Source: Candidatus Adlerbacteria bacterium GW2011_GWA1_54_10
GTDB lineage: Bacteria; Patescibacteriota; Minisyncoccia; Phycocordibacterales; SBAW01
DNA: 64,000 bases
Direction: 5' to 3'
Assembly: GCA_001004665.1 (NCBI GenBank)
Contig: LCRO01000006.1
Span: 444 to 64,443 of the forward strand
Under the pieces are notes generated by a model, which saw only the letters and a list, made by a program, of their open reading frames with translations, searched no databases and had not been told where the DNA came from. Below, in pieces: positions 3,281 to 52,989 of this stretch. Made by a program: the position numbers and the translations under genes. The number at the start of each line of letters is the position of its first letter. Position 1 is the stretch's first letter.

Positions 3281-3961
3281 ATGATCTATTTTGACCGCGT
3301 AAGCAAGGTTTATGCCGACGATTCCGTAGCTCTCGAGGATGTTTCTTTCAGCGTCGAGCCGGGCGAATTTATTTCCGTCGTCGGACACTCGGGTGCCGGC
3401 AAGACCACATTGGTAAAAATGCTCCTTGCGGAGGAACATCCGACAAGTGGATCGGTGTTTTTTGAATCCATAAACATCCACGAGATCCCTCTCCACAGGA
3501 TAAACGACCTGCGGCGCAAGATAGGGACAGTGTTTCAGGACTTCCGCCTGCTACCCAACAAGACCGCATACGAGAACATCGCCTTCGCCATGGAGGCCGC
3601 GGGGCGTAGCGAGGAGGATATACACTCCGACGTACCGCACGTGCTCGAGCTGGTTGATCTAGGAGACAAGATAAACAACTTCCCCGCGCAGCTTAGCGGC
3701 GGCGAACAACAGAGAGTCGCCATCGCGCGCGCAATAGTCAACCAGCCCGATGTCATAGTCGCCGACGAGCCGACCGGCAATCTCGACCCTGTAAACACGT
3801 TCGAGATTGTGCAGATACTCAAAAAAATAAACGACCTCGGCACCACGATAATTCTGACCACGCACAACAAGGGTGTCATAGACTCACTGAAGAAGCGCGT
3901 CATCACGATGGATCGCGGCAAGGTCATCCGCGACGACAGGGAAGGAAAGTATATATTATAG
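3281..3961 (+). CDS. ftsE: cell division ATP-binding protein FtsE
   Basis: Walker [13 protein letters not shown] signature LSGGEQQR, Walker [12 protein letters not shown]. Immediately followed by ftsX. Confidence 0.9.
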
Positions 3962-3965
3962 GAAT

Positions 3966-4901
3966 ATGGACTGGACTACGGCAAAAAGGATCTTCCGCGC
4001 CGGAATGCTGGATTTCTCCCGCAACGCGTTCGTCTCTGTTGCATCCATACTGGTAATGACGGTTACTCTTTTCGTGGTCGGAGTGACTATCTTCGCCGGC
4101 GTTATTTTGAACGCTACGCTCGACGAGCTTAGGGACAAGGCCGACATCAACGTGTACTTCACCACCATGGCGCCGGAGGAGCGAATGCTCGAGCTTAAAA
4201 GCTCGCTCGAGGCTCTGCCCGAGGTGGAGTCCGTGGAGTACATCTCGCGCGACGAGGCGCTAGCGGCCTTCCGCGAGCGGCACAAGGACGACCAGCTTAC
4301 CCTGCAGGCGCTCGAGGAGCTCGAAGACAATCCTCTCTCCGCAGTGCTTAATGTCAGGGCGCGGGACATTTCGCAATACGAGGCCATTGCCGCGTTCCTG
4401 AACAAGGAACAGGAGGCCCTAACAGCGGGCGAGGCGCCCATAATAGACAAAATAAATTTTTATAACGAACAGCACAGACAGGCCCTCGCGCGGCTCGAGG
4501 TCATTACCGACTCCGCGCAGCGGCTCGGGTTTGTCGTCATCGCAATACTCATACTCACTTCGATAGCGATCTCCTTTAATACCCTGCGGCTTGCCATATA
4601 TTCCTCGCGGGACGAGATACAGGTAATGCGGCTCGTAGGCGCTGGGCAGTTCTATATCAGAGCGCCCTTTATGGTCGAGGGCACGCTTTACGGCCTTATT
4701 TCAGGCATAATAACCCTGCTCCTTTTCTACCCTCTCACGTGGTGGCTCGGAGGCGCGACGCAGGGTTTCTTTGGCGGCGTCAACATATTTGGCTATTATG
4801 TTTCTAATTTTCCGCTATTTTTTCTGATAATCGCCGGCACGGGGATGCTGCTTGGCGCCACGGCGAGTTTTCTTGCGGTCCGGCGGTATCTTAAAATCTA
4901 G
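3966..4901 (+). CDS. ftsX: cell division permease-like protein FtsX
   Basis: N-terminal TM segment, large periplasmic loop and 3 C-terminal TM segments. Adjacent to ftsE. Confidence 0.85.
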
Positions 4902-45244: not shown

Positions 45245-45496
45245 TTGCGCATGGACCCAGAGATAGAAGAGCTTAAAGAGCTTGCGCGCGCGCAGAGCAG
45301 GATCGCGGAAGACACTAACCGCATCGTGCACAAACTCCATCGCGGCGTCTGGTGGGGAAGGATATGGACATTGCTTTGGTGGGCGGCGGTGCTCGGTATA
45401 GGCGGAGCCACATATTACTACTATCTCGCGCCATATGTGGACCAGATACAGGCACTTTACGGCAACGCCCGCGGAATTTTTGAGAATTTTAGGTAA
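45245..45496 (+). CDS. hypothetical small membrane protein
   Basis: 83 aa: coiled N-terminal half and one Trp-rich TM helix. Confidence 0.45.
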   Translation: MRMDPEIEELKELARAQSRIAEDTNRIVHKLHRGVWWGRIWTLLWWAAVLGIGGATYYYYLAPYVDQIQALYGNARGIFENFR

Positions 45497-47033
45497 CTGC
45501 CGCGTAGTGATATACTATAAAAAACCGCTTGGGTAGCTCAGTTGGTAGAGCATCTCCCTGAAGAGGAGGGGGTCGCCGGTTCGAGCCCGGCCCCAAGCAC
45601 CACGTTGGAAATGTCAAAGATTCAGATGTCGCCTCGCTTCGCTCGGCGACCAAATCGTATGGATTTTTCGGGGCAAAAAGAAATTCCCGATTCCATGTTG
45701 GCAATTCGGAAAGATTATCTGTCTGAAGGAGATTTGCGGCTTGATTCAAGGATTTTACGAACTCACGAGCCGGTTCGAGCCAAGACAACCCTTTTGTCTC
45801 AAAATCGGTGATTTTCTCGGAAAGCGCGACTTTTTGGAAAATGAGAATATCTTTTTTGGCAGCGTATTCTTTTTGTGTTAGCGTGTCGTCAAGATAGACA
45901 TCAAGTAGCTTTTGAATTCTTGTCTCTACTTGCGATAACTGCTCTTTGAGATTTACCACTTCACTTTGCGCCTGTTCTTTTGCTTGATTTTCTTCCGTAT
46001 CCAAAGCCACCAAAACTTTCTCGGTGTCTTGGCTCGACAAAGAAACTTTTTGAAGGAAGGTTTTGATTTGGGAAACTAACTGATTTTCACCGAGATACTT
46101 TTCTTGGCATACGCCTCGCTTTTTGGTACAGCGATAGTAAGTGTAAATACCGCCATTTCCCTTTGCATATTGAGCAGTAATTGAGCAACCACACGAGGCG
46201 CATTTCATAAGGCCAAGAAAAGCAAAACTATGTTTTCTATCGGGACGTACTTTCCCACGCTTCGTCATAACTTCCTGACATTTATCAAAAAGTTTCTTTG
46301 ATATTAACGGCTCGTGCATTCCCTCAAAAATTTCCCCTTTGTATCTCATCAGTCCAATGTAGAAAGGATTTTGTAGAATATGCTGAACATTGCTCAAGGA
46401 TATTTTGTTATCAGCATTAGTGAGCAGTTTCTTCTTCTCACACCAATTTGCAAGAATGTTGAGAGAATATGCTCCGGTAGCGTACATTTCAAATATCTTT
46501 CTTACTTTAGGAGCTTTTTCTTTATCAACATCGATACCTCTCGTTTTGGCGTTATTTAGATAGCCAACCGGAGCCCAACTTGGCCATACCCCATTTCGTA
46601 TTTTTTGCCGTAGTCCACGCTTCACATTCTCTCGCAAATTGTCCACGAAGTATTTACTTTGCCCAAAAGCAATGTTCAGCATGAATAATCCTTGCGGTGT
46701 AGGTTCAAACCAGAAACAGGGAAATTTGAGAGCACGAATCAAGCCGCGATCCACAAAATGGATAATCTTTCCGCCGTCTACCGAATTTCTTGCAAGACGA
46801 TCCGGATGCCAAGAAACAATGCCATCTGCTTTTCCTTCCTCAATCAATGACAACATTTCTGCGAATTTCATTCGTCCGGGTTCTTTTGCGGTTTTGGCCT
46901 CTTGGAAAGAGGCGACAATTTCAAGTTTTTCTTTTGCGGCAAATTCTTTGAGCTCAACAAGTTGAGCTTCAATCGATAGAACTTGTCGGTCATCTTCTTC
47001 GGTGCTTTTGCGAGCGTATATTATGTATTTCAT
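45489..47033 (-). CDS. large serine recombinase (resolvase/invertase catalytic domain + recombinase domain + zinc ribbon)
   Basis: N-terminus MKYIIYARKSTEEDDRQVLSIEAQ carries the catalytic Ser motif. Central recombinase domain, Cys cluster CASCGC...YYRC, coiled-coil. The ORF continues with no stop through the left inverted repeat and antisense through tRNA-Phe to 45489, so the true C-terminus is uncertain. Confidence 0.8.
   Translation of the reverse strand: MKYIIYARKSTEEDDRQVLSIEAQLVELKEFAAKEKLEIVASFQEAKTAKEPGRMKFAEMLSLIEEGKADGIVSWHPDRLARNSVDGGKIIHFVDRGLIRALKFPCFWFEPTPQGLFMLNIAFGQSKYFVDNLRENVKRGLRQKIRNGVWPSWAPVGYLNNAKTRGIDVDKEKAPKVRKIFEMYATGAYSLNILANWCEKKKLLTNADNKISLSNVQHILQNPFYIGLMRYKGEIFEGMHEPLISKKLFDKCQEVMTKRGKVRPDRKHSFAFLGLMKCASCGCSITAQYAKGNGGIYTYYRCTKKRGVCQEKYLGENQLVSQIKTFLQKVSLSSQDTEKVLVALDTEENQAKEQAQSEVVNLKEQLSQVETRIQKLLDVYLDDTLTQKEYAAKKDILIFQKVALSEKITDFETKGLSWLEPAREFVKSLNQAANLLQTDNLSELPTWNREFLFAPKNPYDLVAERSEATSESLTFPTWCLGPGSNRRPPPLQGDALPTELPKRFFIVYHYAAVT
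45527..45602 (+). tRNA. tRNA-Phe (GAA), CCA encoded
   Basis: Manual fold: GCTTGGG/CCCAAGC acceptor, D-loop AGCTCAGTTGGTAGAGC, anticodon loop CUGAAGA, T-loop GGTTCGAGCC. Preceded by a TATACT -10 element. Confidence 0.9.
45619..45693. repeat. left terminal inverted repeat, 75 bp perfect
   Basis: ATTCAGATGTCGCCTCGCTTCGCTCGGCGACCAAATCGTATGGATTTTTCGGGGCAAAAAGAAATTCCCGATTCC. Confidence 0.9.
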
Positions 47034-47079
47034 AGTTTTTGTTAGTTAATGATTGAAATTTTTCTTTTCTGCTTCTAAC

Positions 47080-47154
47080 GGAATCGGGAATTTCTTTTTG
47101 CCCCGAAAAATCCATACGATTTGGTCGCCGAGCGAAGCGAGGCGACATCTGAAT
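47080..47154. repeat. right terminal inverted repeat, 75 bp perfect
   Basis: Exact reverse complement of 45619-45693. Confidence 0.9.
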
Positions 47155-47356
47155 GCCGCACGAATCAAAACCGCAAAAGAACTTGTTAAAAACATCGGCT
47201 CGAACCATATTTTGTAGAAGCAGAAAAGAAAAATTTTAATCATTTGATTTTTGTTCTCAAGAAGCGGCTTTTAGCCGCTTCTTGACTTTATATATTATTC
47301 TGGTATCATGTGTCATAGTGTTCGGGGAATGAACTGACCTTTGAAAGGAGAATGCG

Positions 47357-47833
47357 ATGGAATACGTGTTTTGGTGGTTTCTTCTCGCCATTCCGTGCTT
47401 TTTTGTTGCTTACTGCAATGGCGCAGACATGAACTTCAGGTTGAACTCTCCCAGCTATGAGGAAGGCTTCTGGAAGTTCTACAAGAACTTCTTCAGTGAT
47501 GGTTTTCGCCTCCTTGTCCACGACTACTTCGGGGTTTACTGTCCATGGAGTTGGGAAAGGGCAAAGAGGCATCGCCTCGCAGATATGCGCACGTATCTCG
47601 GGGCAGACGGACGTTGTCATGATCGCCTTGGCCACATAACCGCGGGGGATTGCGACAATCCCGAAAAACAGGAGGCAATCGCTCGCCACGCCTACATCAG
47701 CCGAACGAAGCAATGGACTGGCGGCGCGTTCAACTTTCTCATCGCACCAATACCAGGCTCGTTCATCATCATCGGCACCGTGATAGCAGGCGTTGTCGAA
47801 CTGGGACGACACCTTATCAACAAGGGTGCGTAA
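47357..47833 (+). CDS. hypothetical membrane protein (158 aa) in an AT-rich segment
   Basis: Strong Shine-Dalgarno AAAGGAG 7 nt upstream, which is unusual in this window. N- and C-terminal TM helices; Cys/His/Trp-rich middle. No family recognised. Confidence 0.5.
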   Translation: MEYVFWWFLLAIPCFFVAYCNGADMNFRLNSPSYEEGFWKFYKNFFSDGFRLLVHDYFGVYCPWSWERAKRHRLADMRTYLGADGRCHDRLGHITAGDCDNPEKQEAIARHAYISRTKQWTGGAFNFLIAPIPGSFIIIGTVIAGVVELGRHLINKGA

Positions 47834-47916
47834 CGCTCACGGTGAGTTTCTCATCAAGGCGCACGACCTACGGGTACGGCGCTTTTCTTTTTTATAAATC
47901 AAAGAACAAAGAATTT

Positions 47917-47981
47917 GCCGCCAAAGCAGTAAATTTTTCAATCCATTTTTAATTGAAAAATTTACTGAAATGAGTTAATCT
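47917..47981. repeat. two adjacent perfect palindromes: 16-bp arms CAGTAAATTTTTCAAT/ATTGAAAAATTTACTG with 9-bp spacer, and 10-bp arms AATGAGTTAA/TTAACTCATT
   Basis: Read directly from the sequence, in the AT-rich spacer between the hypothetical gene and hsp20. Confidence 0.85.
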
Positions 47982-48107
47982 TAACTCATTAGAAAAACTT
48001 GAAATTGTCAGCGGTGCGGCTCCGCCGCCTTTCCGGATTTTCGCGGGGGAACTTCCTCGCCGCCGCAGGCGGCGAAAGCGGTTCGGACTAATTCAAGAAT
48101 AGAGCAC

Positions 48108-48614
48108 TTAATTTGATTTGACTTTGAGTTTTGCCTGGCGGCCCTTGTCGACTTTAGGGAGTCGGATGACAAGGAGGCCATGCTTTTCGCTTGCCTCGGC
48201 GTCCTCTATCTCGACCTCCTGCGGCAGGACTACCGTGCGGGTGAACGAGCCCCAGTAAAGCTCCTGGAAGAAAAAGTCGCCGTTCGTGCCCTCGGTATGG
48301 CGCTCGCGCTTGCCGCGTATGGTAACCATGTCGCGCGTTATCGAAATATCAAGGTCCTCGGGGCGGACTCCGGCTATCATGGCCTTTATGACTATATGCG
48401 TCGGCGTTTGATAGACATCCACGGCAAGTTCTCCCGCCAGGTCCTCCTCTTCTATCTCCGCAGGCGCCGGAGCGGCCTTTTCTTTTTTTGTTCCGCGCGC
48501 GGGCGCCTGGGGCGTCCGCGCGAAAGACGAGCCGCCCTGCTCGAGCTCGTCGAGCCCCCAGTCATCGTCTCCCTGGCTCCCTGTCAGCCACTCGAATAAA
48601 GATTTTCTCGCCAT
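48108..48614 (-). CDS. Hsp20/alpha-crystallin family small heat shock protein
   Basis: Alpha-crystallin domain (AVDVYQT ... V.KA...GV..EDLDI.I....V.I.GKRE) and C-terminal LVIRLPK. Confidence 0.85.
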   Translation of the reverse strand: MARKSLFEWLTGSQGDDDWGLDELEQGGSSFARTPQAPARGTKKEKAAPAPAEIEEEDLAGELAVDVYQTPTHIVIKAMIAGVRPEDLDISITRDMVTIRGKRERHTEGTNGDFFFQELYWGSFTRTVVLPQEVEIEDAEASEKHGLLVIRLPKVDKGRQAKLKVKSN

Positions 48615-48621
48615 AAAATTG

Positions 48622-49326
48622 TCAGCAGTAGTCTCGGCTTGGCTGTTTGATCCGTTCCGTCATCAGAAATACTCCGACGATCCCGACCCAGATGACCAAA
48701 AACATCCAGAATGTCGCGCCGCTACCTTCTTGAAGTATAAAAAAATTAAAGACGAGGTGCAAGAAAATCGCTAGGATAACTCCTGCGAGCGCATAGAGTT
48801 TCCGCTCTAAAGCAGGCTTGTAATAGGAGAGTGCGAGAGAAAGCCCGACTGTGGCCGATGCCAGCGTATGGAGGAGCGTCGCGCCGACGAAGCGCAGATC
48901 GCCCATTACAACGGAACGCAGAATATCGCCTTGCTGGAGCGGCGTAATAAGAAAAAACGTGTTTTCCAGCGCAGCAAACCCAAGTGCCGCCGTCACCAGG
49001 TAGATGAGCGCGTCCAGCGGCTCGTCGAAAGCCCGCGAGCGCAGTGCCCCTATATAGGCCGCGCCGAATTTAAATATCTCCTCCAGCGCCGCCCACGCCA
49101 AAAGAAGCACGGTGCCGGAATAATATTGCATAGCCTGCCGCTCGAGTGGTAATACGAGCGGCACCGCCGCCATGCCTGCGAGGAACGCAAAAATTATGTA
49201 GCGCCGCGGCTCGGGCTCGCATCTGTCCTCGCGGAGCCAGAAAAAGAGCCAAAGAAGCGCGGGAAGCACTCCTCCTATCACGGCTACAAAGATCAGCGGA
49301 TCGGCCACCTTTACAGTATAGGCCAA
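48622..49326 (-). CDS. PrsW family intramembrane metalloprotease
   Basis: Motifs EE..K (LEEIFKFG), FA.LEN..Y-like (FAALENTFF), HTL and further C-terminal His residues across the TM helices. Confidence 0.7.
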   Translation of the reverse strand: MAYTVKVADPLIFVAVIGGVLPALLWLFFWLREDRCEPEPRRYIIFAFLAGMAAVPLVLPLERQAMQYYSGTVLLLAWAALEEIFKFGAAYIGALRSRAFDEPLDALIYLVTAALGFAALENTFFLITPLQQGDILRSVVMGDLRFVGATLLHTLASATVGLSLALSYYKPALERKLYALAGVILAIFLHLVFNFFILQEGSGATFWMFLVIWVGIVGVFLMTERIKQPSRDYC

Positions 49327-52612: not shown

Positions 52613-52688
52613 GCACGGTTAGCTCAGTTGGTAGAGCATCCCCTTGACGTGGGGAGGGTCGCAGGTTCGAGTCCTGCACCGTGCACCA
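52613..52688 (+). tRNA. tRNA-Val (GAC), CCA encoded
   Basis: Manual fold: GCACGGT/ACCGTGC acceptor, anticodon loop UUGACGU, T-loop GGTTCGAGTCC. Confidence 0.9.
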
Positions 52689-52903
52689 AAACTAACTTTG
52701 TCGGAATTGACTGCTCCGCGCGGCGAGTACGCCGCGCTCCGCAGGGCAAAATCCGCTTTTGTTTTCGCCGTAAAATCCCGCCTTCGGCGCGCCCAGATTT
52801 TGCGCTCACTTCCGACGAAGTTTCAGTTTGTGACCCCACGGGGAATCGGACCCCGATTTGCGCCTTGAAAGAGCGCTGTCCTAACCGTTAGACGATGGGG
52901 CCG

Positions 52904-52989
52904 CGGAGGAGGTGGGATTCGAACCCACGATGCCTTACGGCATACCGGTTTTCGAAACCGGCGCACTAGACCAACTATGCGACTCCTCC
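52904..52989 (-). tRNA. tRNA-Ser (CGA)
   Basis: Reverse complement folds with GGAGGAG/CTCCTCC acceptor, anticodon stem CCGGU/ACCGG with loop UUCGAAA, long variable arm, T-loop GGTTCGAATCC. Confidence 0.85.

Follow-up and report, generated by a model that had tools for sequence, protein, structure and literature searches.

A 64,000-nt stretch of the Candidatus Adlerbacteria bacterium GW2011_GWA1_54_10 genome (GenBank assembly GCA_001004665.1, contig LCRO01000006.1, positions 444 to 64,443 of the forward strand; hereafter the window) very probably carries a 2,507-bp large serine recombinase (LSR) integrative element, inserted at the 3' end of a tRNA-Phe gene, equipped with a cargo gene and an internal, inverted attachment site (attP) of its own, and preserved as a partly deleted copy. 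We base this reading on the boundaries of the insertion, an empty site in relatives, an architecture kept family-wide, the geometry of the attachment-site arms and the decay of individual alleles, all of which we observed directly. An earlier note on this DNA had described a mobile LSR element beside tRNA-Phe with 75-bp perfect inverted repeats as its ends. Insertion at the tRNA 3' end stands, and the repeats as ends do not: the insertion occupies positions 45601-48107, it also holds a cargo gene and a second pair of repeats, and the right-hand 75-bp arm is internal to it, forming half of the inverted attP.

The boundaries are given by relatives that lack the element. Loci L082, L083 and L084, with hsp20 86% identical to that of the window, share the window's gene order on both sides (TsaD-ValRS-PrsW-Hsp20, then tRNA-Phe, then 81aa-RR-PAS kinase), and in them tRNA-Phe directly abuts the hsp20 stop codon; thus, the inserted DNA is 45601-48107, or 2,507 bp. 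The unoccupied sequence reads ...CCCCAAGCAC followed immediately by TAGTTCGATTTAAC.., and the window junctions read ...CCCCAAGCACCACGTTGG.. on the left and ..AATAGAGCAC followed by TTAATTTGATTTGAC.. on the right. An empty site of the form ...CCCCAAGCAC joined to TTAATTTGATTTGAC had been predicted from the layout before the relatives' junction was found. The earlier note had proposed a search for empty sites and for target duplications; the former exists in these three relatives, and in place of the latter the two true junctions have in common the 4 bases GCAC, with no duplication of the target.

The unoccupied tRNA-Phe gene (L082 5492-5565) does not encode its CCA: it ends ..AAGCAC, after which the hsp20 stop codon follows, and the final CA is supplied by the element. 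Insertion turns tRNA-Phe into a CCA-encoding gene with a long structured trailer, which could alter processing of the tRNA 3' end. In a second relative (L085 4682-4817 and L086 1240-1375; hsp20 85% identical) tRNA-Phe lies on the hsp20 strand and is followed by GCAC-ACGTTAAAGAAATTCAG.., similar to a Y arm, with the contig ending soon after; this arm may belong to another family member in a rearranged locus.

The inverted repeat is as perfect as had been reported (75/75): repeat finding and exact search place its arms at 45620-45694 and 47080-47154, 75 nt each and 100% complementary. The left arm had been set one base too far to the left, at 45619-45693, and its distance from the CCA of tRNA-Phe(GAA) is 17 nt rather than 16. 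Just two copies of the 75-nt sequence occur in the window, with none expected in shuffles, and it is not the generic genome repeat that the earlier note had held out as a possible refutation. GC content falls to ~40% over 45600-47400, against ~52% in the surroundings. Smaller inverted matches connect sequence to the right of the right arm with the 5' part of the recombinase gene (47048-77 with 47215-44, 46880-96 with 47166-82, and 46914-50 with 47907-48009), and these were the first sign that the unit exceeds the repeat-bounded segment.

This organization is widespread. The recombinase has thousands of close relatives; the best 120 are 71-98% identical to the window protein, and all of those among them that carry a taxon name belong to Patescibacteria, also known as the Candidate Phyla Radiation (CPR). 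For comparison we fetched 80 loci from genome_contigs (GTDB species genomes, with 147 relatives) and 80 JGI metagenome loci among at least 563 relatives. We write O for GCACCA, Y for the GGAAA-type arm, D for the tRNA-like arm, and primes for inverted copies. Most loci in both sets have Y/Y' inverted repeats of ~100 nt (96-100% identity) flanking the recombinase gene, one arm ending ~45 bp before the ATG and the other forming the final ~100 nt of the open reading frame (ORF). A convergent tRNA gene abuts Y in ~120 of the 160 loci, and there the downstream arm ends in TGGTGC (or TGGTGG, TGGCGG, TGGCTC), the antisense of the terminal tRNA bases. Most loci with no tRNA run out at a contig end. 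More than 25 anticodon types serve as targets across the family, among them Leu, Arg, Lys, Ile, Ser, Met, Val, Tyr, Glu, Gly, Ala, Asn and Cys, with Phe used in the window.

Conservation between loci extends ~180 bp beyond the upstream arm, and this stretch contains D, which consists of GC-rich hairpins and terminates in ...GGTTCGGACTAATTCAAGAATACT-GCACCA. A second, inverted copy of D, usually 100% identical, lies 0.5-2 kb farther out in 32 of the 35 loci with sufficient flank, and such copies were found again in the metagenome set. Between the D copies is a cargo slot that holds one gene, rarely two, nearly always divergent from the recombinase and unrelated from element to element. Examples include dihydroorotate dehydrogenase (DHODH), a sodium:solute symporter, methyltransferases, a short-chain dehydrogenase (SDR), an EEP-family enzyme, a PD40 propeller, and membrane or secreted proteins. 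In about 8 of 40 family copies the ORF is broken, yet the arms remain near-perfect. The 4 nt adjoining CCA vary among otherwise identical arms of different elements and are always equal in the two arms of one element; thus, the arms appear to be homogenised quickly.

Rfam models matched nothing but tRNAs in the window region or in the typical and atypical loci scanned, leaving D, Y and the coding sequence unmatched; D is thus not a known RNA. ARAGORN detected no tmRNA at atypical flanks. A phage origin is unsupported, as a scan of viral contigs (IMG/VR) gave no relatives of the recombinase. We found no description of the family in the literature on serine recombinases, tRNA and integrative elements in Patescibacteria, CPR or Parcubacteria, and it is common but apparently undescribed in this group.

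Every junction follows a single grammar, in which a tRNA-like arm is followed by GCACCA and then by an arm that opens with N4-GGAAAWKKCAAR... The unoccupied target (attB) is tRNA-O-host flank, the left junction (attL) is tRNA-O-Y, the right junction (attR) is D-O-host flank, and the internal site, read on the other strand, is D-O-Y; of O, GCAC alone is shared with the target. On the tRNA strand the layout is tRNA-O-Y-(recombinase, antisense)-Y'-O'-D'-(e, f, g, cargo, k)-D-O-hsp20, with e, f, g and k denoting short segments at the cargo edges. The earlier note had found long perfect repeats hard to reconcile with the asymmetric att sites of serine integrases. These sites are in fact asymmetric (tRNA-like arm, GCACCA, GGAAA-type arm), and the element is not a terminal-inverted-repeat transposon.

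The two classes of tRNA-like arm differ by a fixed offset. From GTYCG to the terminal A of CCA the distance is 24 nt for tRNA arms (30 of 31) and 29 nt for D arms (31 of 34). In serine integrases the zinc-ribbon (ZD) motif lies 5 bp nearer the centre in attB than in attP (Rutherford et al. 2013, PMC3783163). D resembles the acceptor and T arm of a tRNA, and its GTYCG/GTTCG, the T-loop motif, is shifted 5 bp outward, as in an LSR attP relative to attB; thus, D plays the part of a tRNA-copying P-type arm and the tRNA that of the B-type arm. By analogy, we infer that GTYCG is the motif bound by the zinc ribbon. We also looked for symmetry between the Y and D arms; the short motifs that they share are direct rather than inverted, and we drew no conclusion from them.

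These observations support ordinary LSR integration by attP x attB recombination, with recombinases of the window's family as the putative catalysts. The excised circle, which we presume to exist, would carry D-O-Y as attP, and its junction would read k-D-GCACCA-Y (..AGAAAAACTTGAAATTGTCAGCGGTGCGG...GAATAGAGCACCACGTTGGAAATGTC..). Judged by its sequence, Y'-O'-D' is a complete second attP, inverted and just upstream of the recombinase gene. This internal site gives rise to two perfect repeat pairs of ~100 nt, Y/Y' around the recombinase gene and D'/D around the cargo.

The protein matches the description in the earlier note, a 514-aa large serine recombinase with recombinase and zinc-ribbon domains: the Pfam families PF00239 (Resolvase), PF07508 (Recombinase) and PF13408 (Zn_ribbon_recom) all score above their cut-offs, and the catalytic-serine motif YARKSTEEDDRQ occupies residues 6-17. 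Its nearest solved structures in PDB are SPbeta SprA and the A118 integrase, and its identity to any phage or plasmid LSR is at most 28%. Models of named types score far lower than required, with 62-104 bits for CcrA, CcrB and CcrC against cut-offs of 700-900 (CcrB 104 against 900), 102 against 375 for XisF, and 31 against 110 for the IS607 model NF033518, the last through the catalytic domain only. These comparisons suggest a canonical but deep-branching LSR. Family members are ~490-525 aa long with LSR domains; an exact look-up of the 514-aa window protein returned no match, the allele being unique.

The window ORF has no stop before 45489, and it crosses the left arm and the antisense of the whole tRNA, as had been noticed from the sequence. 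This run-on is a family trait. The conserved protein finishes at ..FPTWC (45597), after which 36 more codons come from the tRNA read in antisense. The conserved C-terminal residues (...TFLKNIGSNHILRNREFVFxPK..YxLVAERSEA....FPxW-C) are encoded by Y, where TGG corresponds to CCA on the opposite strand. Intact copies all have their stop codon beyond the element, at a distance of 9-194 nt and within antisense tRNA. The attP thus appears to overlap the 3' end of the recombinase ORF, so that the stop codon is always outside the element and integration would change the tail of the protein. In the circle, the frame would enter D' and stop at the D'/k boundary.

Alleles at the same locus show that the window copy has decayed. 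The identical cargo protein occurs there in more than 20 groundwater contigs, and five sibling contigs have a complete internal site (100-nt Y', TGGTGC, D') together with a 525-aa recombinase that retains the conserved motif. In the window, 119 bp have been cleanly deleted between a point within Y' and the distal end of D' (junction between 47154 and 47155), with loss of the outer 25 nt of Y', the core TGGTGC and most of D'. Its left arm still spans all 100 nt of the family sequence, as far as the tRNA CCA, identical over 100 nt to the upstream arm of a sister genome and with 45620-45694 as its inner 75 nt, and its right arm is short; thus, the 75-bp length is a by-product of the deletion. The window recombinase has also lost 33 nt in frame, or 11 conserved codons (..TFLKNIGSNHIL..) present in the intact siblings.

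The sister genome GW2011_GWB1_54_7, 99.1% identical over 13 kb, has a different deletion, which removed f, e and D', and a 21-nt loss in the gene. The insertion predates the split of these strains, and the internal site was lost twice independently. Although attL and attR are intact in the window, the lost internal site and the 11 missing conserved codons make its copy probably immobile and no longer autonomous. The perfection of the repeats had been taken as a sign of recent mobility; the insertion is instead shared by several strains, of which the siblings keep the 100-nt repeat and the window copy has decayed. Beside the 33-nt deletion, positions 45695-45760 carry dense substitutions relative to the siblings (~9 in 50 nt) and resemble other subfamilies (for example ATTGCCAACAT, as in L019), which suggests gene conversion from another family copy.

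The recombinase gene is also laced with long-range complementarity. Four segments at the cargo edges are perfect complements of the gene module, g of the leader and ribosome-binding site (RBS), k of codons ~31-40, e of codons 46-52 and f of the codons that immediately precede Y. Segments and partners co-vary from element to element, the paired fraction being 0.91 (0.32-0.49 in shifted registers) and double changes affecting 32 pairs (8-14 in shifted registers). We rejected the idea that e, f, g and k are relics of a second gene copy, as relics would not co-vary with their partners across diverged elements. Within the coding sequence lie at least 11 more helices of 9-18 nt, nested with one another and with e and f. 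Each family recombinase gene contains 2-8 perfect repeat pairs of at least 13 nt, compared with 0.17 in host tiles of equal size, 0.015 in synonymous-codon shuffles and 0.23 in cargo interiors. Pairing in register within the coding sequence is 0.81, against ~0.3 when shifted. Double compensatory changes there did not separate from shifted controls (33 against 20-28), and it is on the fraction paired and the repeat counts only that we base the claim of pairing in the coding sequence. At positions 46897-46913, exactly between the k- and e-pairing segments of the gene, is a perfect palindrome with 7-bp arms (GCCTCTTGGAAAGAGGC).

In the conserved helices G-U cells (296) are about as frequent as A-C cells (345), which gives no sign of a single folded RNA strand in what is a weak test, most mismatches being of other kinds. 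A fold of the whole element as a single strand was rejected as sole cause, as perfect repeat pairs number 4.6 in the recombinase coding sequence but just 0.23 in cargo interiors. Transcripts initiated outside the element, or from the promoter-like site in g, would carry g, f, e, D and Y', and such transcripts would fold back on the RBS and the coding sequence. The control logic of IS10 and IS50 is a model for such fold-back, and by analogy with it this is a plausible partial reading; it leaves the helices within the gene and the strict Watson-Crick rule unaccounted for. Our best guess is that the internal attP holds the recombinase in check, as an operator or through RNA fold-back, and doubles as a homology block for module exchange.

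A more radical proposal is that the internal attP, the repeat pairs and the nested Watson-Crick helices are parts of a transposition pathway, through a folded intermediate or through cassette exchange, and we give it little credence. In such a pathway, pairing of D-O-Y with Y'-O'-D' within a single-stranded or folded intermediate would restore attP to double-stranded form. Alternatively, two inverted attP sites would permit cassette exchange, and thus, if the proposal is true, the capture of single genes. We know of no LSR with either mode of mobility.

Comparison between loci shows that parts of these elements are exchanged. The comparison of L169 (1-1190) with L171 gives 100% identity from the upstream arm through cargo, D and host flank, the internal site included, and only ~80-90% identity across the recombinase gene, which suggests that the recombinase module was swapped between these strains, with the break point in the upstream arm. 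In L156 the gene module is reversed, so that tRNA-Leu is co-directional with the recombinase and abuts the upstream arm, the sole case among ~120 tRNA-abutted loci. At L092, L100, L101, L156, L095 and L105 the downstream arm is followed by a divergent D-like arm. L100 and L156 have, beside the recombinase module, a further module bounded by perfect inverted repeats of 117-123 nt (L156 2090-2212 and 5131-5253; L100 1936-2052 and 4597-4713) with 2.5-2.9 kb of cargo, which in L156 encodes a VanY/S11 DD-carboxypeptidase and a Kelch-repeat protein; contigs with the extra module end exactly at the repeat. Chains of modules thus exist.

Such exchange of the gene as a unit (L169 against L171), its reversal in L156, and the fact that the repeats enclose exactly one recombinase gene would suit a transposon resembling an insertion sequence (IS), that is, a 1.5-kb repeat-bounded segment whose serine recombinase acts on its inverted ends. 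We consider this very unlikely, because 2.5 kb and not 1.5 kb is missing from the empty site, and the insertion ends at 48107, 953 bp past the right repeat. Additionally, the upstream arm is never at a host junction, being always followed by a conserved D arm; e, f, g and k lie outside the repeats and match the gene; and the sites are asymmetric and of attP/attB type.

The chains in L100, L101 and L156, the different cargo carried alongside close recombinases, and the swap between L169 and L171 would also agree with two modules inserted successively, each with palindromic ends (Y..Y' for the recombinase, D'..D for the cargo), the cargo being a non-autonomous cassette moved in trans. This too is improbable: four segments at the edges of the cargo module match the recombinase gene perfectly, which means that neither module is independent of the other, sites of the form D-D or Y-Y would violate the grammar of every junction, and both modules are missing together from the sole empty site.

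Perfect inverted sites with a common core are, in principle, a substrate for inversion. A Hin-like switch, in which the recombinase flips the Y-Y' segment (and the D'-D cargo) and thereby places recombinase or cargo under the tRNA promoter, would accommodate the one flipped module, with its recombinase co-directional with tRNA-Leu, as well as the many contigs that break at repeat boundaries and the 4 nt by CCA that vary between elements and are identical in both arms of one. We regard such a switch as unlikely. Orientation is uniform save for that one of ~120 tRNA-abutted loci, the cargo segment is invariant in orientation (k by the outer D, e by the inner D), and recombination of attL with attP is not normal for LSRs. 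Any repeat exceeding the assembler k-mer would give contig breaks, and copies with a broken recombinase retain perfect arms. The length and LSR domains of the protein also differ from those of a small invertase, which has ~190 aa and a C-terminal helix-turn-helix.

An assembly artefact, or a resident chromosomal resolvase beside a chance repeat, has next to no probability. The same architecture is present in ~160 independent assemblies from many projects and at many different tRNA targets, no copies of the repeat are expected by chance, and a relative has the empty site. Chimeric assembly can create inverted repeats, and one such oddity occurs in the sister metagenome-assembled genome (L081, LCRR01000004.1), where 94 nt within prsW (3955-4048) are the exact reverse complement of its own hsp20 (4530-4623). 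The equivalent positions in the window (~49008-49101) hold normal prsW sequence, and the replacement in L081 is probably an assembly artefact or a template switch.

Several points weigh against our preferred reading, an LSR integrative element with an internal inverted attP. The empty site was examined at one locus only, and the crossover dinucleotide is bracketed within GCAC rather than pinpointed. D-O-Y was seen only as the internal inverted copy, and no circular junction or excision product came to light, reads being unavailable. We found no precedent for an internal attP in the literature; a circular form, like the purpose of the internal site, is something that we infer. No recombination directionality factor (RDF) was found in the element, the sole other ORF being the variable cargo and no conserved small ORF being seen, although RDFs are diverse and could act in trans. 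Finally, both segments are near-invariant in orientation, which leaves a flip-flop role unsupported and the upkeep of arm identity unaccounted for.

The features of the locus are collected in Table 1. The 158-aa cargo protein had no family match. Elsewhere in the window, at 52613-52989, is a tRNA cluster in which tRNA-Val (+) faces tRNA-Glu and tRNA-Ser (-), with no family element, D or Y present.

Table 1. Features of the element and its flanks, in window coordinates.
Feature	Position	Strand	Basis or remark
tRNA-Phe(GAA)	45527..45602	+	ARAGORN, Rfam; 3' half is the B-type arm, now part of attL
Final CA of tRNA-Phe	45601-45602		Element-derived (empty-site comparison)
GCAC, left copy of the core overlap common to attL and attR	45597..45600		Window junctions compared with the L082 empty site
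Whole inserted element, 2,507 bp	45601..48107		Missing from L082, L083 and L084; recombinase part low in GC
Y arm, element-side (P'-type) arm of attL	45603..45694		Encodes the conserved recombinase C-terminus (..NREFLFAPKNPYDLVAERSEATSESLTFPTW)
Large serine recombinase ORF, 514 aa	45489..47033	-	Pfam, homologs, C-terminal comparison, PDB
Spacer, RBS and recombinase 5' leader (segment g3)	47034..47079	-	Complementary to 47215-47244
Y' arm, truncated inverted copy of Y	47080..47154		Alignment with five intact sibling alleles and the sister genome
D' remnant	47155-47165		
Segment e	47166-47182		Perfect complement of recombinase codons 46-52
Segment f	47188-47214		Perfect complement of codons just before Y, now deleted from the window gene
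Segment g	47215-47244		Perfect complement of the recombinase leader
Putative hairpin ahead of the cargo gene	47257-47285	+	Consensus scan, pattern match only
Putative sigma-70-like promoter ahead of the cargo gene	47282-47309	+	Consensus scan, pattern match only
Promoter-like site aimed at the recombinase	47260-47233	-	Consensus scan, pattern match only
Cargo ORF, 158 aa	47357..47833	+	Co-directional with the tRNA, divergent from the recombinase; not in the empty site
Segment k, sense copy of recombinase codons ~28-40	47905..48009	+	Complementary to 46914-46950; interrupted by two small hairpins
D arm, P-type	48010..48103	+	GC-rich hairpins, then a mimic of the tRNA 3' end (GGTTCGGACTAATTCAAGAATAGA)
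GCAC, right copy of the core overlap (attR)	48104..48107		hsp20 stop codon directly after
hsp20, host gene beyond the insertion (B' side)	48108..48614	-	

The kind of element is a known one, an LSR integrative element at a tRNA. Phage-type LSRs (A118/LI, Bxb1, phiC31, SPbeta SprA) have the same domains (resolvase catalytic domain, recombinase domain, and zinc ribbon with coiled-coil), and as here they have a short core overlap, no target duplication, and asymmetric attP and attB sites with a 5-bp shift. Unlike their elements, this one is 2.5 kb with no phage genes, its attP and the 3' end of the integrase ORF overlap, leaving the stop codon to the flank, a complete second inverted attP lies upstream of the gene, more than 25 tRNAs are used family-wide, and no RDF is evident.

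Among named LSR models, those of XisF-type elements and of the staphylococcal cassette chromosome (SCC; CcrA/B/C) score best, yet far below their cut-offs. SCC elements insert at the 3' end of a conserved gene and carry cargo. Unlike SCC, the element described here targets a tRNA and not rlmH, has a single recombinase, and is much smaller. IS607 likewise has a single serine-recombinase gene in a small mobile element, and differs in that the present family has LSR domain order and inserts site-specifically at tRNA ends. Hin and Gin belong to the small serine invertases and use an enhancer, and Flp is a tyrosine recombinase. Hin/Gin and the yeast 2-micron plasmid resemble this family in that the recombinase gene is flanked by inverted copies of the recombinase's own site, and if circular the element would be 2-micron-like, with two unique segments separated by two inverted repeats of ~200 bp. 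Unlike Hin/Gin, orientation in this family is almost invariant.

The nearest concept is the tycheposon of Prochlorococcus, from which this family differs in size, recombinase type and the absence there, as far as the parts of the source drawn on here go, of these repeats. Those parts describe elements of 10-20 kb, mostly with tyrosine recombinases and often with replication genes, in which each integrase type is tied to one of seven tRNAs (bioRxiv 10.1101/2020.12.28.424599). Like this family, tycheposons are cargo elements, site-specific at tRNA 3' ends in small streamlined genomes, and a minority have an LSR. The same portions of the description are silent on any inverted attP inside the element and on perfect repeat pairs of 100 nt. 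From tycheposons as described there, the present elements also stand apart in having a single cargo gene and a single recombinase.

Several properties of the family are without a description that we could find in the literature. They comprise tRNA mimicry by one arm of attP, the overlap of attP with the end of the integrase ORF, the presence before the gene of a complete attP in inverted orientation, from which the two pairs of perfect repeats arise, and a cargo slot for a single gene together with a coding sequence rich in self-complementarity. The family offers a compact series of LSRs in which one attP arm is a recognisable tRNA mimic under the 5-bp attP/attB rule, making site recognition easy to read. 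It also raises the questions of why a second inverted attP stands before the integrase gene and why conserved perfect pairings lace the coding sequence. If mobility through a folded intermediate or cassette exchange were true, it would be a new mode for serine recombinases.

CPR bacteria have tiny genomes with few recognised mobile elements. The family described here is present in hundreds to thousands of assemblies, needs only 2.5 kb, and moves single metabolic or envelope genes. Its landing pad is the 3' end of tRNA genes, the most conserved sequence of the cell. Thus, these elements may be a main route of gene gain in the CPR.

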